Shown: in pieces, positions 1,912 through 25,829 of the stretch
Layout of the letters: every line of letters starts with the position of its first letter
Numbering within the stretch: position 1 is the stretch's first letter
Assembly: GCA_016205055.1 (NCBI GenBank)
Contig: JACQJK010000008.1
Coordinates: 1-26,690 of the forward strand
Direction: 5' to 3'
Origin: Candidatus Doudnabacteria bacterium
Lineage (GTDB): Bacteria; Patescibacteriota; Doudnabacteria; UBA920; 2-01-FULL-50-11
Length of the DNA stretch: 26,690 nucleotides
Made by a program: the position numbers and the translations under genes
Notes under the pieces: model-generated
What the model saw: only the letters and a program-made list of their open reading frames with translations
Databases searched by the model: none
Told to the model about the DNA's origin: nothing

Positions 1912-3813
1912 CTATCCATACAAGGGCAAATCCTTTGTCAGAGATTCAACCAAGGACTTTCTGCCGAAAACAAGAACTCCCAAATATTCCACATCTTTTC
2001 TATTTTTATTCTTCGTTCGCTCAATCACTTTCTTATCGTCAGTGGTCGCGATCATCTCTTTGATAAATTCGCTTACCTCTAACCCGTCATGCTTGGCACT
2101 GTCAGAAAGTTTTTGAATTATTTGACTCGAATTTGCTGACTTAATCATGATGGCGTGTTGAATATTGAGCTTAATGCGCTTTCCGTCTTTTGTTCCTATT
2201 TCATCCTGATAAAGCAATTTTCGGCCTTCTCTTGCGCCAAAAGCCGCATTCAGGTGAGCAATAGTATTCAACTCCTCCCAGAATTTCATGCCGGCGCCTT
2301 TGTTGATCACCGCCACCGCGATTTTCGTGATTTTGGATTTTCCTTCTTTCGCTGATTCTTCCTTCATCGGCGGGAAAATTACCGTTTCCCGAATCGACTT
2401 GTCCATCAGCACGGCAAAAAGCCGCTCGGACATGCCAAAACCAACCGCCGGCGGCATGCCGTACTCGAGAGCTTCCACAAAATCCTCATCGAGCATCTGC
2501 GCCTCCCGATCACCGGCCGCGCGCAACTTCATTTGCTCTTCAAAACGTTTTCGCTGATCCAGCGGATCGTTCAACTCGGACCAACCGTTGCCCAGCTCGG
2601 TGCCGGCGGCCAGAATTTGAAATCTTAAAACTTTGCGCGGATTTTTAAGGTCGCTCTTGGAAAGAGGGGAAATTTCTAAAGGGTGGCCGACAAGAAAGCA
2701 TGGCTGAATGAGCTTTTCCCTGACCGTCTTTTTGAAAATCGCATCAATCAGCCGGCCTCGACCGAAAGTCTTATCATAGACAATAGACATCCTGTCGGCG
2801 TGTTTTTTCAAATCGTCAACGGTCAAATGACTATTTAGGTCAATACCGGTTTCCTTTTGCAAGACCGTGAAATAATCAACCTTAGCCCAGTCGCCTCCCC
2901 AATTAAGCTCGCGACCGGCAAAACTGGTTTTGAAAGAACCCGCGATGTTCCTGGCGACCAGTTTAAACATTTTTTCTGCCAAGGCCATCCCCTGTTCATG
3001 ATCAGCGTATGCCCAATAAAATTCCATGTCGTCATATTCCTGCAGGTGTTCGCGGTCAATGCCTTCGTTGCGGAACAGGCGTCCAATTTCAAACACTCGG
3101 TCAAAACCGCCGACCAATAAACGCTTCAAGGGAAGCTCCAGAGAAATCCGCAAATAAAAATCGCGATCAAGCGCGTTGTGGTGAGTTACGAACGGTTCGG
3201 CGTCAGCCCCTCCGGGTACGTTCTCCAAAACCGGAGTCTGGACTTCCAAAAATCCCTCGGCTGCCAAAAAGTTTCTAATCGTCTGCCAAAAAACATTTTT
3301 GCGTCGGAGCATTTCCCTCACTTCCGCATTGACAACCATATCCAAGTAGCGACGGCGCAGGCGCGTTTCCATGTCTTTCAAACCGTGAAATTTCTCCGGA
3401 AGCGCGCGCAAAGACTTTGCCAGCAAACTCAAGTCTTTGGCCAACAAGGTTTTCTCTCCGGTTTTCGTTTTAAACACACCTCCCGCAACCCCCAGAAAGT
3501 CGCCGGTGTCGAGGAGTTCAAGCAGTGCAAAGGATTTTTGGCCCAGCTCTTCGGCTTTGAACGCCACTTGAATTTTCCCGCTTTCGTCCTCCAGATCGCT
3601 AAAAATGATTTTTCCATGAGAACGCATCGCCCGCAGGCGCCCGACCAGCTTCATTTGCTTTTTCTGGCGCTCGTAATCCTCGAATTTTCCCAAAACCTCG
3701 CCGATCAAGTGCGTCCGTTGAGCTTTTGCCGGATAAGGATCAACTCCTTGCGCTTTTATTTTTTGCAGCTTTTGCAATCGCTCGGCAAGCAACTCTGTTT
3801 CTTTTTGAGTCAT
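1912..3813 (-). CDS. lysS: Lysyl-tRNA synthetase (class II) with an extra ~140 aa C-terminal DUF2000-like domain
   Basis: OB-fold anticodon domain; FLEVQTPVL, YLRISLELPLKRLLVGGFDRVFEIGRLFRNEG, EALEYGMPPAVGFG. The core ends at IRETVIFPPMK (~aa 484) but the frame continues to aa 633. Confidence 0.96.
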   Translation of the reverse strand: MTQKETELLAERLQKLQKIKAQGVDPYPAKAQRTHLIGEVLGKFEDYERQKKQMKLVGRLRAMRSHGKIIFSDLEDESGKIQVAFKAEELGQKSFALLELLDTGDFLGVAGGVFKTKTGEKTLLAKDLSLLAKSLRALPEKFHGLKDMETRLRRRYLDMVVNAEVREMLRRKNVFWQTIRNFLAAEGFLEVQTPVLENVPGGADAEPFVTHHNALDRDFYLRISLELPLKRLLVGGFDRVFEIGRLFRNEGIDREHLQEYDDMEFYWAYADHEQGMALAEKMFKLVARNIAGSFKTSFAGRELNWGGDWAKVDYFTVLQKETGIDLNSHLTVDDLKKHADRMSIVYDKTFGRGRLIDAIFKKTVREKLIQPCFLVGHPLEISPLSKSDLKNPRKVLRFQILAAGTELGNGWSELNDPLDQRKRFEEQMKLRAAGDREAQMLDEDFVEALEYGMPPAVGFGMSERLFAVLMDKSIRETVIFPPMKEESAKEGKSKITKIAVAVINKGAGMKFWEELNTIAHLNAAFGAREGRKLLYQDEIGTKDGKRIKLNIQHAIMIKSANSSQIIQKLSDSAKHDGLEVSEFIKEMIATTDDKKVIERTKNKNRKDVEYLGVLVFGRKSLVESLTKDLPLYG

Positions 3814-8574: not shown

Positions 8575-9633
8575 CTAGCGAGGTATCTTCTCCACCTCGG
8601 TTTGGATCAAGACCTCCCGCAAATTCTCCAAATCTTCCAATACCACTCCCGTACCCCGCACCACCGCGGTCAAGGGGTCGTCAGTGACGTGCACCGGGAT
8701 AAGAGTTTCTTTGGCGACCAGTAAATCCAATCCGCGCAATAACGACCCGCCGCCGGCAAGAGTGATCCCGCGGCTCATGATATCGGCTACCAGTTCCGGA
8801 GGGGTTTCTTCTACCGCTTCCTTGACCGTGTTAACGATTGTTCGCACCGATCGGCTTAAGGCCTCGCGAATCTGTTCGTCGGTGACCACCACCTCCTTGG
8901 GCAACCCGGTCACCATGTCACGGCCGCGCATGACGGCTTGCGCGCCTTCTTTCTGACGATAGGCCGAACCGATTTTAATTTTTACTTCCTCCGCCGTCCG
9001 CTCTCCCAGTAATAGATTGAACTCTTCCCGAGCGTACTGAATAATACTCTCGTTCATCTCGTCCCCGGCAACCCTAATACTCCTGGACACCACAACACCG
9101 CCTAGGGAAATGACGGCAATTTCGGTGGTGCCTCCGCCAATATCCACGATCATGCTGCCCGAGGGATCTTGCACCGGCAGGCGCGAACCGATCGCGGCGG
9201 CCATCGGCTCTTCAATCAAAAACGCCGCGCGAGCGCCGGCGTTGAGCGCTGCATCCTGAACCGCCCGCCGCTCCACGTCCGTTCCCCCGGACGGGATGCC
9301 CACGACCACTTGGGGTCGGGAAAAAAAATTTAGATTTCCCTGCTGAACCTTGGTAAAAAAATATTTCAACATCTGCTCGGTGATTTCAAAATCTGAAATT
9401 ACCCCGTCAACCAATGGTCGAATCGCGACGATATGCGCCGGCGTGCGGCCCACCATGCTTTTCGCGTCGTTGCCGATGGCTAAAATTTGCTTGGTCCTGG
9501 TATTCAAAGCCACCACCGAGGGTTCGTTGATAACTATGCCTTTCCCCGAAACGTAAACCAAAGTGTTCGCGGTTCCTAAATCGATGCCGATATCGTGAGA
9601 AAAATTTTTGAAAACCCGTTCGGATAATGACAT
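8575..9633 (-). CDS. mreB: Actin-like cell shape protein MreB
   Basis: DIGIDLGTANT, EPSVVA, IEEPMAAAIG, VDIGGGTTE, LAGGGSLLRGLD. First gene of mreBCD-mrdA; TAATG overlap with proS. Confidence 0.97.
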   Translation of the reverse strand: MSLSERVFKNFSHDIGIDLGTANTLVYVSGKGIVINEPSVVALNTRTKQILAIGNDAKSMVGRTPAHIVAIRPLVDGVISDFEITEQMLKYFFTKVQQGNLNFFSRPQVVVGIPSGGTDVERRAVQDAALNAGARAAFLIEEPMAAAIGSRLPVQDPSGSMIVDIGGGTTEIAVISLGGVVVSRSIRVAGDEMNESIIQYAREEFNLLLGERTAEEVKIKIGSAYRQKEGAQAVMRGRDMVTGLPKEVVVTDEQIREALSRSVRTIVNTVKEAVEETPPELVADIMSRGITLAGGGSLLRGLDLLVAKETLIPVHVTDDPLTAVVRGTGVVLEDLENLREVLIQTEVEKIPR

Positions 9634-14555: not shown

Positions 14556-14630
14556 AGTTTTTTAGGTTTCTACGAGCTTTTAAAGCGAACCTATTGGGTT
14601 TTCCGCCCGTGAGTGTACGTGCCAGACGAG

Positions 14631-14700
14631 TACTCCGTTAGAAGTCAGACGTCCAAGGACGTCTGCCGGCACGCAATCGTGCCAGACTTCTAACGGAGTA
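14631..14700. repeat. Y-shaped (three-way) palindromic element, REP/MITE-like
   Basis: Perfect 16-bp inverted repeat TACTCCGTTAGAAGTC (14631-14646) / GACTTCTAACGGAGTA (14685-14700). It encloses AGACGTCC-AA-GGACGTCT (14647-14664) and GGCACG-CAAT-CGTGCC (14668-14683). Confidence 0.85.
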
Positions 14701-14701
14701 A

Positions 14702-14731
14702 ATTATAACAGAAAAAAATTCTAGTTGACAA
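14702..14731 (-). promoter_or_regulatory. Putative sigma70 promoter for the holB operon (TTGTCA-18-TATAAT with extended TG)
   Basis: Minus strand: TTGTCA at 14731-14726, TG-T-TATAAT at 14710-14702. Confidence 0.6.
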
Positions 14732-16440: not shown

Positions 16441-17448
16441 TTATCTTGTCGAGATCATAGATAGCTTGTAAGTGTCCAGATGCTCGAGCGCCACGCCAGT
16501 TCCTTTGGCAACGCAAAGAACCGGCTCGTCGGCCACGTAAGCCGGCACACCCGTAGATTGGGCGAGCAGTCGGTCCAAGTTCCGCAACAAGGCCGTTCCA
16601 CCCGTTAAAACCATGCCCTTATCGATGATGTCAGAAGACAGTTCGGGCGGGGTTTCCTGCAGTACGTGTCGAACGGCGCCGATGATCTCGGTTAACTGGT
16701 CCTGAATGGCTTCCACCACTTCGTTGGTGAACACTTGAATCGTACGGGGTAATCCTTGAATCACGTCCCGCCCTCGAATTTCCAATTTTTCTTCCTTTTC
16801 CACGGGCAAGGCGGAACCAATCCGAATCTTCACCTCCTCCGCGGTTTGCTCGCCAATGGCTAGCCCGTGTTTTTTTCTGATATAATCCGCAATGGCAACG
16901 TCCATCTTGCTGCCCGCCACGCGAACCGACGTGGAAACTACAATCCCTCCCAAAGAAATTACGCTCACATCCGTGGTTCCCCCGCCTAAGTCAACCACCA
17001 AGTTACCCGAAGCGGTGCCTATATCAATGCCCGCCCCGATTGCCGCCGCGATAGTTTCCTTGATCACGTAAGCCGCTCTGGCCCCGGCGGACTGCGCGGC
17101 GTCAACCACCGCCCGCCGTTCGGTAGAAGTTATCCCTCCGGGAACGGAAATCATCACCTCGGGACGCAACAAACGGATCCGCCCGGCGGCTTTATTGATA
17201 AAATACCGCAACATTGCTTCCGTCACCCGGTAATCGGCAATCACTCCGTCCTTCATCGGTTGTTGGGCAATGATGGTTTCCGGAGTGCGCCCCAGCATTT
17301 CTTTCGCCTCTGTCCCCACGGCTAAAATCCGGTTGTCGGCGATAGAAATCGCCACCACCGTCGGCTCGTTTATAATGATCCCGCGCTTGGGGACGAATAC
17401 CAAAGTGTTGGCCGTCCCCAAGTCAATCCCCAATCGTTTTAGCCACAT
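16441..17448 (-). CDS. mreB: Second MreB/Mbl-like actin paralogue
   Basis: LGIDLGTANT, EPTVVA, VDLGGGTTD, LTGGTALLRNLD. Stand-alone, downstream of murA. ATG at 17448 preferred over the TTG at 17454. Confidence 0.95.
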   Translation of the reverse strand: MWLKRLGIDLGTANTLVFVPKRGIIINEPTVVAISIADNRILAVGTEAKEMLGRTPETIIAQQPMKDGVIADYRVTEAMLRYFINKAAGRIRLLRPEVMISVPGGITSTERRAVVDAAQSAGARAAYVIKETIAAAIGAGIDIGTASGNLVVDLGGGTTDVSVISLGGIVVSTSVRVAGSKMDVAIADYIRKKHGLAIGEQTAEEVKIRIGSALPVEKEEKLEIRGRDVIQGLPRTIQVFTNEVVEAIQDQLTEIIGAVRHVLQETPPELSSDIIDKGMVLTGGTALLRNLDRLLAQSTGVPAYVADEPVLCVAKGTGVALEHLDTYKLSMISTR

Positions 17449-17450
17449 GC

Positions 17451-18698
17451 TCAAACTTGCCTTGTTATCTTGGCTCCCAACTTAGACAGACGTTGCTCTA
17501 TCTTTTCATAACCCCGATCGATATGATGAATGTCCCGCACTACGCTTTTCCCCCGGGCAACGATGGCGGCAATCAGCAAGGTCATGCCGGCCCGGATGTC
17601 GGAACTCCTGATATTTCCGCTTTTTAAGCCGACCGGCCCGGTTATTTCGGCCCGATGAGTATCTATCAATCTAACACGCGCCCCCAGTTTTTTCAACTCG
17701 GCAAGATATCCCAAGCGCCCCTCCCAAATCCAATCGTGAACCACGCTTGTGCCGCGGCATTGCGTGGCAAAAACGCCGAAAGGCGGTTGTAAGTCGGTTG
17801 CTAAATTGGGATACAGCCCGGTCCTGATCGCGCCCGCGCGGTACGAACTTTTTGGCTTCAAAATCGTAAGCGAATCCTTTGCTAAAGAGAAGCGAACCCC
17901 CATTTCGGACATCTTGTGGTAAACCGCATCCATTTGACTGTGATCGACATTCGTGATTGTAATTTGGCTCTTCGTTGCCGCGGCCAGTAACGCAAACGTT
18001 CCGGCTTCAATCATATCCGGTATGACGGAACTGGTTGCCCCGTGCAGATTTTTCACTCCCCGGATAACGAGCGTATGAGTGCCGATCCCGGAAATTCTTG
18101 CGCCCATTTTTTTCAAAAACTTGCATAAACTTAAAACGTGCGGTTCCAATGCGGCCAGTTTGATGACTGTCGTTCCCGTGGCCAAAACTCCCGCCAAAAT
18201 CATATTCTCCGTGCCCGTGACCGAGGACTCGGCAAAAACTTCCGCTCCGTTCAGCCGTTTGGCTTTCAATCTCAAGCGGGACTGTCCGTTGGCGACAGCG
18301 CCCATCTGGCTAAACGCCCGCAAGTGAACGTCAATCGGACGCGCCCCAATTAAATCTCCTCCGGGAAAAGACAAATCTACCTGCCGACTTCGCCCCAGTA
18401 ACGCGCCTAACAGGACGACCGAAGCGCGCATGGAGCCGACCAAGACCGGATCGGGCCGAAACGTCCGCAAATTTTCAGCCGCAACTTCGACCTTGCCCGG
18501 GCGCGTTTTTACGCTACAACCGAGATCAGTCAAAATTTTCAAAAAATTTCGCACGTCCACAATATCGGGAACGTCGGTAATGACGCAACGGTGGCGCGTC
18601 AGCAAAGTCGCCGCCAGCATGGGCAAAACTGCGTTTTTTGAACCAGAAACGCGAATCCGGCCCGCCAACGGTCTGCCGCCTTCAACAATGAATTTCAT
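17451..18698 (-). CDS. murA: UDP-N-acetylglucosamine 1-carboxyvinyltransferase, Asp115 variant
   Basis: SGSKNAVLP, MRASV, FPGGDLIGARPIDVH, DMIEAGT, YPNLATDLQP, DIRAG, IDRGYE. Confidence 0.96.
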   Translation of the reverse strand: MKFIVEGGRPLAGRIRVSGSKNAVLPMLAATLLTRHRCVITDVPDIVDVRNFLKILTDLGCSVKTRPGKVEVAAENLRTFRPDPVLVGSMRASVVLLGALLGRSRQVDLSFPGGDLIGARPIDVHLRAFSQMGAVANGQSRLRLKAKRLNGAEVFAESSVTGTENMILAGVLATGTTVIKLAALEPHVLSLCKFLKKMGARISGIGTHTLVIRGVKNLHGATSSVIPDMIEAGTFALLAAATKSQITITNVDHSQMDAVYHKMSEMGVRFSLAKDSLTILKPKSSYRAGAIRTGLYPNLATDLQPPFGVFATQCRGTSVVHDWIWEGRLGYLAELKKLGARVRLIDTHRAEITGPVGLKSGNIRSSDIRAGMTLLIAAIVARGKSVVRDIHHIDRGYEKIEQRLSKLGAKITRQV

Positions 18699-20528: not shown

Positions 20529-22310
20529 TTACGCGGAAGTCTTTCTTAAATCTCTAATTTTCAACTGCACGCGCCTTAGGCCGTTCCAATGGTTATGCGA
20601 GGGCTCGACCACGACTTCCAGATTTTCCCCGGGAGCAAGCCGGAGGCCTTCTTGGGCCTTGCCAAAACCGATAAATTCATAAACCCGGTCGTTTTTTGTG
20701 GCCTGCAGTTTCAAATGTTTTCCGGTTGCGCCCACCAAGCGAGTTTGCTCCAAGGTCAAATCCTGCAGCAAAACCGTAACCGGCGGATTGTCGGGACCGA
20801 ACGGCTCAAAATTTTTCAATTCCTCAAGCAACGCGTCAGTAATCTGCTCCGGCTCTGCTATGAAATCAACAAACTCCTGCCGCGAAAAATCCGACTCGGC
20901 CAGTTCGCGGCCGGCTGTAGCATCAATGTGGTTATGGAAGTCGTCTAAAAACTCGTTTTTCAAAGTTAAACCGGCCGCAGCAGCGTGCCCGCCGAATCGC
21001 TCCAAATACTTTTGGGCGCCGGATAATGCCTTGACAATATTAAAACTTCCCCACGACCGGGCCGAGCCAGTAGCCACCTCCGCTCCTTTTTCCAAAACAA
21101 TCGCCGGCCGCTGATAATTTTCCACCAAGCGGGCCGCGACCAAACCCACTACTCCTCTGGGCCAGCCGACGCCCGCCGCCAAAAGCACCTTTCTGTCTTG
21201 CTGGCCTTCCGCGATTGACTTGGCTTCGGAAAGAATCTGTTCGGTCAAGCGCTGTCGGTGCAAATTTAAACTTTCCACCTGCCCGGCATACATGGCGGCC
21301 TCGGTCGGATTGTCCGTTGCTAACAAGCGGAAAGCGATGTCGGCGTGCTGGATGCGTCCGGCCGCGTTAATACGGGGCGCAATGATAAACCCGACGGAAT
21401 AACTGTCAAAATTTGCATATTCGCTGATTCCGGCGTTTTTGACAATTTCCCATAAACCCGGCCACTTGGTTTTTCCAATGACCGAAAGACCGTATTTTAC
21501 CAAAATGCGATTTTCCCCCATCAAGCTTTGGCAGTCGGCGATCGTGCCGATCGCCACTAAATCCAAAAGCCATTTCTCCCAGCCGGGAACTATGCGCGCC
21601 CGCGCGTGCCCAAGAAAAGCAGAAAGTTTTTTTGATCCGATTTCCGGAATTTTCCAGCCGTACATCCCTTGATACTCGGATGAGTAAATTAAGGCAATAA
21701 GCGCTTGCACTAACTTGAAAGCAACCCCCACCCCGGTCAGTCCTGCAAGCACCGGTAAATCGTCAAGTTTAGGATTAATCACGGACGAGGCAGGCGGTAA
21801 ATTCCCTAAAATGTAGTGGTGGTCGGTGACAATCACGTCAACCCCCAAAGAGTTGGCAAAAATTACTTCGTCAAGCGCGTTAATGCCGCAATCCACCGTC
21901 ACGATCAAGCGCGTTCCGCGGTCAGCTATAGATTTAATCGCCTCCTGGTTCAAACCATAGCCCTCGTCGAACCGATCGGGAATGTACCAGTCGATTCGCG
22001 CGCCGAGTTTTGACAAAAACCGGTATAACACGACGCAAGCGGTGACTGCGTCCGCGTCATAATCGGCATAAATCGTTATCTTTTCCTGGTCGGCGATTGC
22101 ACTAAGTAATCGGGCAGCGGAAATCTGCATTCCGCTCATCGCAAACGGGGAAATTAACCGCTCGTATTGGGGATTGAGAAAATAATCCTGCTCACTCTCG
22201 CTTGTTAAGCCGCGATTGAACAATAGTTGCAAAATAACCCGATCGTGGTCGGGAAATTTTTTGATTAGCTCATCGCTGATTTTTTCTTTAACAATCCATT
22301 TGCGCTTCAT
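20529..22310 (-). CDS. recJ: Single-stranded-DNA-specific exonuclease RecJ
   Basis: YADYDAD, PDRFDEGYG, VTVDCG, VTDHH (DHH), APRINAAGR, GSARS, GGHAAAAG (DHHA1), C-terminal OB region. ATGA overlap with korB. Confidence 0.96.
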   Translation of the reverse strand: MKRKWIVKEKISDELIKKFPDHDRVILQLLFNRGLTSESEQDYFLNPQYERLISPFAMSGMQISAARLLSAIADQEKITIYADYDADAVTACVVLYRFLSKLGARIDWYIPDRFDEGYGLNQEAIKSIADRGTRLIVTVDCGINALDEVIFANSLGVDVIVTDHHYILGNLPPASSVINPKLDDLPVLAGLTGVGVAFKLVQALIALIYSSEYQGMYGWKIPEIGSKKLSAFLGHARARIVPGWEKWLLDLVAIGTIADCQSLMGENRILVKYGLSVIGKTKWPGLWEIVKNAGISEYANFDSYSVGFIIAPRINAAGRIQHADIAFRLLATDNPTEAAMYAGQVESLNLHRQRLTEQILSEAKSIAEGQQDRKVLLAAGVGWPRGVVGLVAARLVENYQRPAIVLEKGAEVATGSARSWGSFNIVKALSGAQKYLERFGGHAAAAGLTLKNEFLDDFHNHIDATAGRELAESDFSRQEFVDFIAEPEQITDALLEELKNFEPFGPDNPPVTVLLQDLTLEQTRLVGATGKHLKLQATKNDRVYEFIGFGKAQEGLRLAPGENLEVVVEPSHNHWNGLRRVQLKIRDLRKTSA

Positions 22311-23194
22311 TGGTACTTTTCGAGCAAGGATGAAATGTCAAGTTTGCTTAAATCATGCTTCACAAGCGGGGTTTTGGAAATTTGCGGATAATTATCCTCC
22401 AAAATCAAACGGTCTTCTTCGTACAATATACCAACGGCAATCTTCTGATCAAGGGGCTCTTGGGTCACCTCCCAGGCCTTGAAGCGATTGTCGGGCGCGT
22501 ATCCTTTATCCTCAAGTTTGTAAACCCGTTTGCGGTACCAATCATAGGACATTTCCGGATTAAAGGTCGGGCACGGCTGCATGACGTCAATAAACGAAAA
22601 CCCCCGATGCCACACGCCTTTGACGATCAAATCAGTCAGGTGCGGAATGTCGCCGGCAAAGCCGCGGGCGACGAACGTTCCGCCGGCTGAAACCGCAAGC
22701 GCCGTAGGGTTTAACTGAAACTCATTATAGCCGTCGGGGTGGGCTTTGCCTTTAAATCCTTTCATGGAAGTCGGGGACGACTGTCCCACGGTCAAGGAAT
22801 AAACGTGGTTGTCGTGCACGATATAGGTAAGGTTAACATTGGACCGAATCGTCTGAATCGTGTGGCTTAAGCCCTCGGCAAACCCGTCGCCGTCGCCGCC
22901 GATAACGATCACGTTCAGCTCGTGATTGGCAAGTTTGGCGCCCACCGCGGCCGGCAAAGCGCGGCCGTGGAGCGAGTGAAAAATGTTGGCCTTAACAAAG
23001 CTGGCAAAATTACCCGAACAGCCGATGCCAAAAACCAAAACTGTCTGGTGCGGCGCCAGGTTCAATTTCACCAGGGCGTTTTTGAGCGCGGCCCAAATGG
23101 CAAAATCGCCGCAGCCCGGGCACCAGGTGGGGAAGACTTCCGAGTTAAAATCGTCAGCGCGCAAAGGGTTAGTAAGGTCGGGATTAGAGAGCAT
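22307..23194 (-). CDS. korB: 2-oxoacid:ferredoxin oxidoreductase beta subunit (TPP-binding)
   Basis: TWCPGCGDF, GIGCSG, HSLHGRALP, GGDGDG...DN TPP motif, QPCPTFN. Start placed at ATG 23194: the ORF-track start at 23254 is a TTG inside repeat copy A. Confidence 0.92.
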   Translation of the reverse strand: MLSNPDLTNPLRADDFNSEVFPTWCPGCGDFAIWAALKNALVKLNLAPHQTVLVFGIGCSGNFASFVKANIFHSLHGRALPAAVGAKLANHELNVIVIGGDGDGFAEGLSHTIQTIRSNVNLTYIVHDNHVYSLTVGQSSPTSMKGFKGKAHPDGYNEFQLNPTALAVSAGGTFVARGFAGDIPHLTDLIVKGVWHRGFSFIDVMQPCPTFNPEMSYDWYRKRVYKLEDKGYAPDNRFKAWEVTQEPLDQKIAVGILYEEDRLILEDNYPQISKTPLVKHDLSKLDISSLLEKYQ

Positions 23195-23221: not shown

Positions 23222-23270
23222 CCCTCTCCATATACGGAGAGGGGGTCCGCCCAAGGCGGACAGGTGGGGT
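23222..23270 (-). repeat. Palindromic repeat, copy A
   Basis: Minus strand: ACCCCACCT GTCCGCC-TTG-GGCGGAC C CCCTCTCC-GTATAT-GGAGAGGG. Begins at the stop codon of the small membrane-protein gene. Confidence 0.8.
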
Positions 23271-23605
23271 TAATTTTGACTTTTATCCGCCGCAGCGAAT
23301 GAATTTTGATTTCTGTACTTACCCCACCTCACCAGACTCAAAACTAATAAGACCGTCAAAAAACTTAGTGAAGACCAAAAAAGAAAATTGAGCAAATACG
23401 CTTTCTCATCAAATACCTGGGCGGAAAAAGCAATTTTAAATGGCCAGCCGGTAAATCTGCATATGGCTAATTCGTGTCCCGGGAACGAACAGTAAAAAGC
23501 AGTTTCAAAACCAACATAACGATTAATTGAGAATCCTGTTATCGACCCCATTACCACACTCCACCCCACCACATGCTTTTTTGTTTTGAGACTAAAGATT
23601 TTCAT
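23270..23605 (-). CDS. Hypothetical small membrane protein (two predicted TM segments)
   Basis: 111 aa ORF, ATG 9 nt after the hairpin of repeat B. Hydrophobic segments near both ends, GWPF and LLNFLFW motifs. Fills the gap between repeats B and A exactly. Confidence 0.7.
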   Translation of the reverse strand: MKIFSLKTKKHVVGWSVVMGSITGFSINRYVGFETAFYCSFPGHELAICRFTGWPFKIAFSAQVFDEKAYLLNFLFWSSLSFLTVLLVLSLVRWGKYRNQNSFAAADKSQN

Positions 23606-23613
23606 ACAATTTT

Positions 23614-23650
23614 TCCCTCTCCTGTCGAGGAGAGGGATTAAGGATGAGGT
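23614..23650 (-). repeat. Palindromic repeat, copy B (no small hairpin)
   Basis: Minus strand: ACCTCATCC TTAA TCCCTCTCCT-CGAC-AGGAGAGGGA (10-bp stem). Head starts 1 nt after the DUF559 stop. Confidence 0.85.
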
Positions 23651-23651
23651 T

Positions 23652-24005
23652 TTATGAAACGGCGCCCTCTATCGCCTCCAAAACCCCCTCAAAATTACTA
23701 TCCAGCTCGTTATTCCACACTCTTAGGAGATCACATCCTTCGACATCGCGTAAATAATTTTCCCTGTGTCGATCTCGACTCTTAATTCCCTCTTCGTTGT
23801 GATGACCACCATCAAGCTCGATTATAAGACGCTTTTCCGGGCAATAAAAATCAACGATGTAATTTCCCATTCTGGCTTGCCGCTTGAATCTAAGTCCGAG
23901 AAACCTCCTATCTCTTAAAGCCTGCCACAATTTAATCTCCCAAGGCGTCCCTTTTCTTCTCAATGCTCTTGAAAGCTTAATGAATTGTTGAGGAACTTTT
24001 TTCAT
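23652..24005 (-). CDS. DUF559-family (Vsr-like, PD-(D/E)xK fold) putative endonuclease
   Basis: Matches the family pattern throughout: SRALRRKGTPWEIKLWQALR, GLRFKRQ, GNYIVDFYC, LIIELDGGHH, LLRVWNNE, EGVLEAI. 117 aa. Confidence 0.9.
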   Translation of the reverse strand: MKKVPQQFIKLSRALRRKGTPWEIKLWQALRDRRFLGLRFKRQARMGNYIVDFYCPEKRLIIELDGGHHNEEGIKSRDRHRENYLRDVEGCDLLRVWNNELDSNFEGVLEAIEGAVS

Positions 24006-24048
24006 ACCTCATCCGTCCTTCGGACACCTTCTCCTCGTCAGGAGAAGG
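24006..24048 (+). repeat. Palindromic repeat, copy C
   Basis: Plus strand: ACCTCATCC GTCC-TTC-GGAC A CCTTCTCCT-CGTC-AGGAGAAGG. Abuts the DUF559 ATG and fills 43 of the 48 nt up to the korA stop. Confidence 0.88.
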
Positions 24049-24053
24049 CGGAT

Positions 24054-25829
24054 TTATCCTAAAATATTTTTCACTTTCTCAACTATCTCTTCCGGCCAGA
24101 ACGGTCGGCCGTCGTACTTGCGCAAGTGATGACCTGGAATGATTCCTGTCTGCTGGCGAATTAATCCTTCGAACTGCCCCGAAAAATTATTTTCAACCAC
24201 TAACAACTGCTTGGCTTCCTCCAGTATCATAACCGCTCGGGGCGTGGGAAACGGCCAGACATAATTAAAATGCAGAAAATTGACACTTGAAGTTTCTCCA
24301 CCCTCATCCGGCCTCCGGCCACCTTCTCCCGTCGAGGGAGAAGGAAATAGAGAAAGGTCTGCTAAGGCCTGTAAAATCGGCCCTTTGGTCGAGCCCCAGG
24401 AAACGATCGTTAAGTCAGCTTGATCCGGGCCGTATAACTTAGGATCAGGGATTTGCAACAAAGCATTGTCCAACTTCCGCATGCGCTTTTGCATCTGCGC
24501 GTTGCGATTGGCGACATCCTCGACGTTATAACCGTATTCGTCGTGTTCATCGGAATTGGCCAAGTGTACTCCCCCTTCGGTCCCCGGCAGAGCGCGCGGG
24601 GAAACTCCCGATTCGGTAACTTTGTAGCGTAAATACTTTCCCTGCTTTTTAATGTCCTCTGCCGTCACCCATTCACCTCGATCGATTTGAACTTTTGCTT
24701 GATCGAATACTGGCACGGTTTTTCCGCCTTCGGCCAGGTTTTTATCCGAAAGCAAAAATACCGGCATTTGATATTTTTCCGCCCAATTAAACGCCTCGGC
24801 CGTTAAATAAAAACACTCTTCCTGATCCCCTGGCGCAATGATCATTCTGGGAAACTCATCTTGCGCCGCGTGCATCAAAAACCGCAAATCGGCTTGTCCC
24901 GACCAGGTGGGCAGTCCCGTCGCCGGGCCGGGACGCTGGCCCATAAAAATCACTACCGGCGTTTCGGTAATGCCGGATAACCCTAAGGCCTCCGTCATCA
25001 AAGAAAATCCGCCGCCGCTGGTGCCAACCATGCTCCGCGTGCCCATCCAGCCGGCGCCTATTGCCGAGTTGAGTACCGCAATCTCGTCCTCCGGCTGGCG
25101 CACGATCATGCCGAATTTCGGTCCGTTTTTGGCGACAAACTCTAACAACGACGAGGAAGGCGTCATGGGATAACCGAAATAAGCGCGGCAACCGGCTGCG
25201 ATCGCCCCCATGCCCACGGCTTCGTTGCCGGTGACGTAAATTTGCTCGCGTGGAGGGCGATTTTCGACTTTATATGCAAACGGATTTTTAAAATTCTTCT
25301 TCGCAAAATCATAACCGGCGCTTCCTGCCTTTAAATTCATGTCAATCACCGGCTGCCCTTTGCTGCCGAAAGTTTCCCTAAGCAACGACAACAGGCCTTC
25401 GATATTCGCTCCCAAGACGGCAAGCAGAGCGCCCAAGGCCACGGTATTTTTCATCAATTCCGAGCCGCCAACGTCGCGGGTAATCTGGGAAAACGGCACG
25501 GCGAAAAGCGTAAACTTAGCATTTGCATTTTTAACCTTACCCGGATCGTAAATGATCCCGGCGTCTTTGGACAACTCGGGCTGGTGTTCGTCAAAAGTCT
25601 GCTGGTTTAACGCCACCAGCAAATTCACCGGCCGGATATGATGATGGACTTTTTCGCCAATTGTGATTTCAAAAGTATTGTGCCCGCCGCGGATTAAAGA
25701 AGGATATTCGGTATAATCGAACACCTGGTACCCCATGCGAGAAAAAATTTTTCCCAGCATGGATCCGGCAACTTTGATTCCGAAACCGGCCTCTCCGCCG
25801 ATTTTAATTGTCACCAAGCGCTCCGACAT
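24054..25829 (-). CDS. korA: 2-oxoacid:ferredoxin oxidoreductase alpha subunit (fused gamma-alpha type)
   Basis: GGEAGFGIKVAG, SLIRGGHN, VTGNEA, GYPMTPSS, EDEIA, SGGGFSLMTE, QRPGPATGLPT, VSWGSTKG, VVENNFSGQF. Contains a repeat-derived in-frame insert. Confidence 0.94.
   Translation of the reverse strand: MSERLVTIKIGGEAGFGIKVAGSMLGKIFSRMGYQVFDYTEYPSLIRGGHNTFEITIGEKVHHHIRPVNLLVALNQQTFDEHQPELSKDAGIIYDPGKVKNANAKFTLFAVPFSQITRDVGGSELMKNTVALGALLAVLGANIEGLLSLLRETFGSKGQPVIDMNLKAGSAGYDFAKKNFKNPFAYKVENRPPREQIYVTGNEAVGMGAIAAGCRAYFGYPMTPSSSLLEFVAKNGPKFGMIVRQPEDEIAVLNSAIGAGWMGTRSMVGTSGGGFSLMTEALGLSGITETPVVIFMGQRPGPATGLPTWSGQADLRFLMHAAQDEFPRMIIAPGDQEECFYLTAEAFNWAEKYQMPVFLLSDKNLAEGGKTVPVFDQAKVQIDRGEWVTAEDIKKQGKYLRYKVTESGVSPRALPGTEGGVHLANSDEHDEYGYNVEDVANRNAQMQKRMRKLDNALLQIPDPKLYGPDQADLTIVSWGSTKGPILQALADLSLFPSPSTGEGGRRPDEGGETSSVNFLHFNYVWPFPTPRAVMILEEAKQLLVVENNFSGQFEGLIRQQTGIIPGHHLRKYDGRPFWPEEIVEKVKNILG
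24301..24344 (+). repeat. Palindromic repeat, copy D, in frame inside korA
   Basis: Plus strand: CCCTCATCC GGCC-TCC-GGCC A CCTTCTCCC-GTCGA-GGGAGAAGG. Its complement encodes PSPSTGEGGRRPDEG (korA aa 496-510). Confidence 0.88.

Follow-up and report, generated by a model that had tools for sequence, protein, structure and literature searches.

Closest described systems

Intrastrand triplex motifs (TM, named TMECO in Escherichia coli and earlier PIT) are DNA repeats in which a pyrimidine arm, a loop, a purine arm and a second loop are followed by a purine third strand that mirrors the arm (Holder et al. 2015, PMC4666352). The TMECO consensus is CCCTCNCCC N3-6 GGGNGAGGG N3 GGGNGAGGG. The second loop is either short (TTA-like, type A) or long (type B), and inverted pairs combine the two types. 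Copies are mostly intergenic and abundant in many phyla, and TM loci are unusually rearranged between E. coli strains. Triplex formation was shown in vitro but was not detected in vivo, the motifs showed no promoter or terminator activity, and neither a link to mobile elements nor a consensus in the flanking genes was found.

REP/REPIN-RAYT systems consist of a small HUH/Y1 nuclease gene bracketed by inverted copies of a hairpin repeat that is also scattered through the genome without the gene, the gene-less copies far outnumbering the genes. Vsr-like (EDxHD) homing endonucleases, such as I-Bth0305I (PDB 3r3p; Taylor 2011 as cited in PMC9403480), share a catalytic fold with the DUF559 family (PF04480), and Rickettsia palindromic elements (RPEs) are short repeats tolerated in frame inside conserved proteins. 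DUF559 itself is one of the large bacterial families without a function. A full-text literature search for DUF559 found no description of its pairing with hairpin repeats; the nearest item was a table row listing DUF559 as enriched among predicted inversion targets (PMC9881135).

A DUF559 gene framed by two inverted repeats

We analyzed a 26,690-nt stretch of DNA (the window) from Candidatus Doudnabacteria bacterium (GCA_016205055.1, contig JACQJK010000008.1). An earlier note, made from the sequence alone, had described a DUF559 gene bracketed exactly by inverted head-plus-hairpin repeats, and this observation is confirmed. On the positive strand, ACCTCATCC follows directly after the CAT (the ATG of the gene) at 24003-24005, and its reverse complement, GGATGAGGT, lies 1 nt from the TTA (the TAA stop) at 23652-23654. 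A perfect hairpin lies outward of each head: TCCCTCTCCT gtcg AGGAGAGGGA (10 bp, 23614-23637) on one side and CCTTCTCCT cgtc AGGAGAAGG (9 bp) on the other. The features of the locus and of the rest of the window are collected in Table 1.

Table 1. Features of the DUF559 locus and other features of the window
Position	Strand	Feature	Observations
24027-24048	-	Upstream-end hairpin (gene sense), CCTTCTCCT-4-AGGAGAAGG; outer boundary of the conserved unit	21-22 of 22 nt identical, loop included, in relatives L093 and L090 (loci of the two closest relatives)
24015-24026	-	12-nt spacer between head and main hairpin, with a mini-hairpin (GTCC ttc GGAC); long-spacer, type-B-like second loop	Compensated variants GGCC/GGCC, GTCCGCC/GGCGGAC and GTTCCGCCC/GGGCGGAAC in other copies
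24006-24014	-	Upstream head, GGATGAGGT in gene sense, touching the ATG; mirror repeat of the purine arm GGAGAAGG (third-strand element)	9/9 identical in L093 and L090
23652-24005	-	DUF559 / Vsr-fold PD-(D/E)XK nuclease gene, 117 aa, intact	PF04480, 113 bits (gathering cut-off 20.6), E 7.8e-33; D52, E63, D65, H69 and R95 present; PDB 3hrl, E 2.6e-35; I-Bth0305I (3r3p), E 9.5e-5
23642-23650	-	Downstream head, ACCTCATCC in gene sense, 1 nt after the TAA	
23614-23641	-	Downstream spacer TTAAT plus hairpin TCCCTCTCCT-4-AGGAGAGGGA; short-spacer, type-A-like end; outer boundary of the unit	Head, spacer and hairpin together 34/36 identical in L093 and L090; similarity ends at the hairpin edge
23270-23605	-	ORF111, small predicted membrane protein	No Pfam hit; homologues beside the cassette in all three related loci; GC 0.39
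23222-23275	-	Third repeat copy, after the ORF111 stop: head CCCCACCT, spacer hairpin GTCCGCC/GGCGGAC, hairpin CCCTCTCC-6-GGAGAGGG	With the upstream end, bounds the 827-bp block absent from relatives G001 and G002
24298-24345	-	Gene-less repeat copy read in frame inside korA	19-aa insertion
24054-25829	-	korA (2-oxoacid:ferredoxin oxidoreductase alpha/gamma-type subunit), upstream neighbor	Pfam POR_N, POR
22307-23194	-	korB (TPP-binding beta subunit), downstream neighbor	Likely start is the ATG at 23194
8575-9633 and 16441-17454		Two MreB paralogues, each preceded upstream by a class-II aminoacyl-tRNA-synthetase-type or MurA gene	About 70% alike at the DNA level in parts; ordinary duplication
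1912-3813		Class-II (Asp/Lys/Asn-type) tRNA synthetase	C-terminal DUF2000 domain
14618-14731		Unrelated Y-shaped palindromic element, as noted separately from this finding	

Folded as single-stranded DNA, the four repeat copies of the window gave z-scores of -3.6 to -5.5 against shuffled sequences, and the head stayed unpaired. Together these copies form two nested inverted pairs. The copy inside korA and the copy after ORF111 were not part of the finding in the earlier note. The note had also set the low GC content of the gene against 60 to 68% in korA and korB. The gene is indeed 42.7% GC, but korA and korB are 51 to 52% GC overall (GC3 of 0.57 and 0.64); thus, the contrast is real but smaller. 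The ORFs of the window that were scanned against Pfam are housekeeping genes, and none showed a transposase or integrase domain. No direct target-site duplication was visible at the edges. No Rfam family, and hence no intron, matched between positions 23000 and 24600.

The D52, E63, D65, H69 and R95 residues, presumed to be catalytic, are invariant in 40 DUF559 homologues. By a profile search of the PDB, the protein is homologous to the structural-genomics protein 3hrl and, more remotely, to I-Bth0305I, and these homologues fix the fold; weak hits above E 0.04 were treated as chance.

The repeats belong to the triplex motif class

The head is a mirror repeat of the purine arm of the hairpin, with T allowed opposite A: GGAGAAGG goes with GGATGAGG, GGGGGAGG with GGTGGGGG, and AAGAGGGGA with AGGGGAGTT. 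In the 0.79-Mb genome (127 contigs, about 90% complete) we found 54 C-rich pyrimidine/purine hairpin loci. Of these, 38 had a mirror head at a match of 87.5% or better, as opposed to 1.4% of random 30-mers. Arm and head covaried across loci, and a hairpin's own flank matched it about twice as often as the flanks of other copies did. The repeats are therefore not a new family but share the architecture of the published TM/TMECO class. They do not fit the exact TMECO consensus, since the arms in the window are 8 to 10 nt long and the second loop is 5 nt or 12 nt with a mini-hairpin.

Many contigs end in or next to triplex-type repeats (C16:2-25, C77:21-44, C90:21-44, C39:34-56, C17:107-129, C118:62-82 and C105:12880-12902, numbered by contig of this genome), several of them sharing the same ~44-nt sequence. 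Near-identical copies therefore seem to break the assembly, and the repeat counts are lower bounds.

Some copies lie in frame inside genes, whereas TMECO is reported as always intergenic. About 20 of the 54 hairpins lie inside long open frames (contigs C58, C118, C33, C104, C52, C27, C73 and C107), including those of two class-I aminoacyl-tRNA synthetases, SecA, UvrC, Pol I, a PGA_cap protein (2 copies), transaldolase (3 copies) and YchF. In KorA, the insertion is absent from three relatives of the same family (G001, G002 and G004), whereas a fourth (G003) has a different repeat variant, giving a 12-aa insert, at exactly the same site. This is either an old insertion with compensated change or a hot spot. 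The tolerance of repeats in essential proteins is RPE-like, although RPEs are not known to have an associated nuclease gene and differ in sequence and structure.

DUF559 genes are repeat-flanked in many phyla

All five DUF559 genes of the genome carry head-plus-hairpin repeats with the heads toward the gene, four of them on both sides, and each gene has its own variant. A strict detector found a repeat on 7 of the 10 sides, and inspection by eye found one on 9 of 10, as opposed to about 0.009 expected per 105-nt window from the 54 loci in 790 kb. The five genes have a GC content of 0.37 to 0.43 in contigs of 0.47 to 0.52.

We next examined 83 homologues: 50 loci from many phyla, 29 from the same order, and the genome's own other copies. 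A perfect hairpin of 7 bp or more was found within 90 nt upstream in 50 of 83 and downstream in 43 of 82, about 55% per side, against a background of 0.04 per window in the same loci. The mirror head faced the gene 77 times and pointed away 9 times, so that about 10% of the flanks have outward heads. Most of the ~17 orthologous Neisseria genes showed no flank, and six had only an upstream repeat 70 to 77 nt away. In five complete genomes of other phyla (Xanthomonas, Mesorhizobium, Bradyrhizobium, Brevundimonas and a Bacteroidales MAG), most of the 16 DUF559 genes were again repeat-flanked, two of them with outward heads.

In E. coli K-12, which has 23 TMECO copies, the DUF559 gene ycjD (b1289; locus 1351040-1351830) is of the same length class. 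It is preceded by a 15-bp perfect hairpin holding CACCTCAT, a repeat-like tract overlaps its stop codon, and TMECO copy no. 9 lies about 170 nt downstream. This arrangement is degenerate and rearranged: the 3' end of ycjD is partly duplicated before copy 9, and the TMECO head points away from the gene.

Across 146 genomes of the same order, the number of DUF559 genes tracked the number of hairpins, with a Spearman coefficient of 0.78 across genomes and 0.87 across 67 genera, whereas a reversed-pattern control gave near-zero counts. The 66 genomes without a strong DUF559 hit had a median of 0 hairpins, and only 4 of them had 3 or more. Genomes with 4 or more genes had a median of 25 hairpins, or about 15 after subtraction of two per gene. 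Host relatedness confounds these correlations and inflates the p-values, although within-genus contrasts point the same way. DUF559 may also be undercounted, since the PF04480 search did not recover its E. coli control despite the annotation of ycjD as DUF559.

Gene-less repeats far outnumber genes (54 hairpin loci against 5 genes in this genome). Of 105 copies of the CCTTCTCC/GGATGAGG type sampled from 80 loci in many phyla, none had a DUF559 gene on its head side, and 13 formed gene-less heads-in pairs; the gene could thus be a passenger of the repeats. Gene-less inverted pairs of the same repeat type, with heads facing each other and only 32 to 181 nt between them, occur in Caulobacterales, Methylosinus, Pseudoxanthomonas and Clostridia and look like empty or MITE-like versions of the cassette. 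By a coarse measure, the similarity of the solo repeats of this genome was 0.789 to the resident gene flanks and 0.780 to foreign ones.

The gene and its ends form one unit

The nearest proteins among 5.8 billion were only 67% and 64% identical, and their genes (loci L093 and L090) lie after a transketolase gene, not korA. In the three-way alignment, the left hairpin with its loop was 95 to 100% identical, the left head 100%, and the right head, spacer and hairpin 94 to 97%. In contrast, the coding sequence was 64 to 71% identical (43 to 55% at third positions), and DNA outside the outer hairpin edges was 10 to 28% identical. The conserved unit is therefore exactly 23614-24048, and its ends are more constrained than the protein. 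The exact left hairpin with its loop, a 24-mer, was found in only one other species genome, that of the cassette relative; homogenization with abundant solo repeats therefore does not explain the conservation of the flanks.

Left and right ends of one gene were more alike than ends of different genes (0.82 versus 0.71), and protein identity tracked repeat similarity (rho of 0.36, reached in 0 of 500 permutations). Homologues of ORF111 accompany the cassette in the three related loci in different positions (L090 2579-2902; L093 1371-1709 and 1765-1806). The first ~50 nt of this family are nearly identical between distant loci, although the proteins are only ~35% identical, and it contains a G/T-rich GTGGTGGGGTGGAG tract.

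Four relatives of the same family (G001 to G004) carry the korA-korB pair, and the DUF559 gene is absent from this site in all four. In G001 and G002, korA and korB are 28 and 12 nt apart with no repeat between them, whereas G003 and G004 carry other inserts. At another cassette locus, in genome G102, three congeners lack the cassette; the two with readable intergenic sequence (G103 and G101) show no repeats, and the third (G104) is partly masked. No recent copies were found: the most similar protein pairs look orthologous, although the comparison of genomic context did not extend to pairs above 80% identity outside the Neisseria set.

Interpretation

We tentatively favor the view that positions 23614-24048 are a self-contained selfish cassette holding an intact Vsr-fold (PD-(D/E)XK, EDxHD-clan) DUF559 nuclease gene whose start and stop codons abut two inverted repeats of the intrastrand-triplex type. 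Together with ORF111 and the third repeat (827 bp in all), it would be an insertion between korA and korB, with the gene and its ends inherited, and probably transferred, as one unit, and with the ends serving as cis-acting sites under tighter constraint than the protein. The most likely mechanism is that the nuclease recognizes the structured ends, both its own and those of the scattered gene-less copies, and by nicking there provokes recombinational copying or repair, a homing or gene-conversion style of persistence and slow spread rather than transposase-type cut-and-paste. The analysis establishes the anatomy, the boundaries of the unit, presence or absence at orthologous sites, the recurrence across phyla and the copy-number correlation, and the unit character is well supported. 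By contrast, that the nuclease binds or cuts the repeats or cleaves a cassette-less allele, that these repeats form triplexes, and the mode of movement are inferences; the interaction of nuclease and repeat is possible but remains short of an even bet. A lone PD-(D/E)XK nuclease has no known strand-transfer activity.

The earlier note had proposed that DUF559 is the cognate nuclease of this repeat family, a RAYT analogue that nicks at hairpins and spreads itself and gene-less copies. This interpretation is partly supported: the repeat-gene-repeat unit is real and its boundaries are exactly as given, whereas nicking and spreading of the repeats by DUF559 as their cognate nuclease is only inferred. 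Three conditions named beforehand as refuting were examined and none refuted it: DUF559 homologues are strongly enriched for gene-facing flanking repeats, the repeats are near-absent from related genomes without DUF559, and the gene is absent from this site in relatives. The resemblance that the note saw to RIME-like palindromes of alphaproteobacteria holds in the sense that the same repeat type is common in Rhizobium, Bradyrhizobium and Caulobacter. The proposal is weakened by the lack of recent copies, by the 0 of 105 sampled repeats with a DUF559 gene beside the head and, as far as the coarse measure allows, by the solo repeats being no closer to resident than to foreign gene flanks.

The locus shares with REP/RAYT systems a gene flanked by inverted copies of a dispersed repeat, but no HUH/Y1 domain (PF01797) was found in the protein or in the 90%-complete genome, DUF559 is multicopy and at variable sites, and its repeats carry a mirror-repeat head; it is at most an analogue, not a member. 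Like the EDxHD homing endonucleases, the gene is small and selfish-looking and is inserted among housekeeping genes. However, it is intergenic, without an intron, intein or extra DNA-binding domain, it sits at many different loci and so has no single homing site, and it carries structured terminal repeats. It has the terminal inverted repeats of a TIR transposon or MITE, but neither a target-site duplication nor, among the ORFs scanned, a transposase. In contrast to the TM repeats as published, the repeats here frame a nuclease gene.

Other explanations appear less likely. The repeats might be expression and insulation modules of the cassette, with stem-loops protecting its mRNA segment inside a host operon, the purine head acting as a ribosome-binding site, stop-free arms keeping insertions harmless, the nuclease having an unrelated target (for example, in mismatch repair or defense) and solo repeats being relics of lost cassettes. 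The heads touch the start codon and resemble GGAGG, arms and heads have no stop codon in any frame, solo repeats are tolerated in frame in KorA, aminoacyl-tRNA synthetases, SecA, UvrC and Pol I, and a Vsr-like protein paired with a cytosine methyltransferase is described in Caulobacter. However, the head is a mirror repeat, not a direct or complementary copy of the arm, which Watson-Crick RNA switches do not need, and an RNA-level SD/anti-SD switch was set aside for this reason. The GAGG-to-ATG spacing in the window is 1 nt, loop sequences are conserved too, PIT/TMECO motifs are reported to lack promoter and terminator activity, and an origin as relics would require many more cassette losses than there are genes. 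We regard this reading as unlikely.

Somewhat less likely still, the repeats might spread or arise independently as recombination-prone hot spots between which DUF559 genes merely tend to land or survive. The variability of TM loci in E. coli, the other inserts in the korA-korB gap of G003 and G004, the many repeats without a gene and, by the coarse measure, the lack of a cognate signal fit this view. Against it, the empty orthologous sites examined lack repeats altogether, which also speaks against homing into a pre-existing inverted pair although gene-less heads-in pairs exist elsewhere; the flanks stay 94 to 100% identical with the gene while the context changes; the exact left hairpin occurs in only one other species genome, that of the cassette relative; head orientation is strongly biased; and repeats are near-absent where DUF559 is absent. 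A domesticated REP/RAYT-type arrangement, the strict form of the note's proposal, in which a host-beneficial, vertically kept nuclease maintains a genome-wide repeat population, is doubtful. The inverted flanking copies of a dispersed repeat and the correlated copy numbers favor it, but the lack of an HUH/Y1 domain in the protein or the 90%-complete genome, the five divergent copies per 0.8 Mb rather than one per repeat family, the nonconserved positions and the atypical composition of the gene do not. Chance juxtaposition of GC-rich palindromes with a short gene has nothing in its favor beyond the low complexity of the motifs and is all but excluded by the enrichment statistics, the conservation of the flanks and the reversed-pattern control.

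A broader reading, unlikely on present evidence but not excluded, is that DUF559 is the long-missing protein partner of the TM/TMECO/PIT repeats: a Vsr-fold, structure-specific nuclease that would recognize the folded hairpin-plus-third-strand DNA at its own cassette ends and at the many gene-less copies. It would thereby drive their copying, their dispersal, even in frame into essential genes, and the genomic instability reported at these loci, and would represent a new class of selfish element built on a PD-(D/E)XK nuclease rather than a transposase.

TM/TMECO/PIT repeats have been catalogued for decades without a partner or mechanism. A tight, cross-phylum, orientation-specific link between them and DUF559 turns both puzzles into one testable hypothesis, including in E. 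coli K-12. If the nuclease acts on the repeats, this would be a REP/RAYT-like partnership that arose independently with a different enzyme fold and a triplex-type DNA structure, and it would also explain repeat-derived inserts in essential proteins of streamlined genomes. If it does not, the cassette is still a clean example of a compact, operon-tolerated selfish gene with unusually constrained ends.
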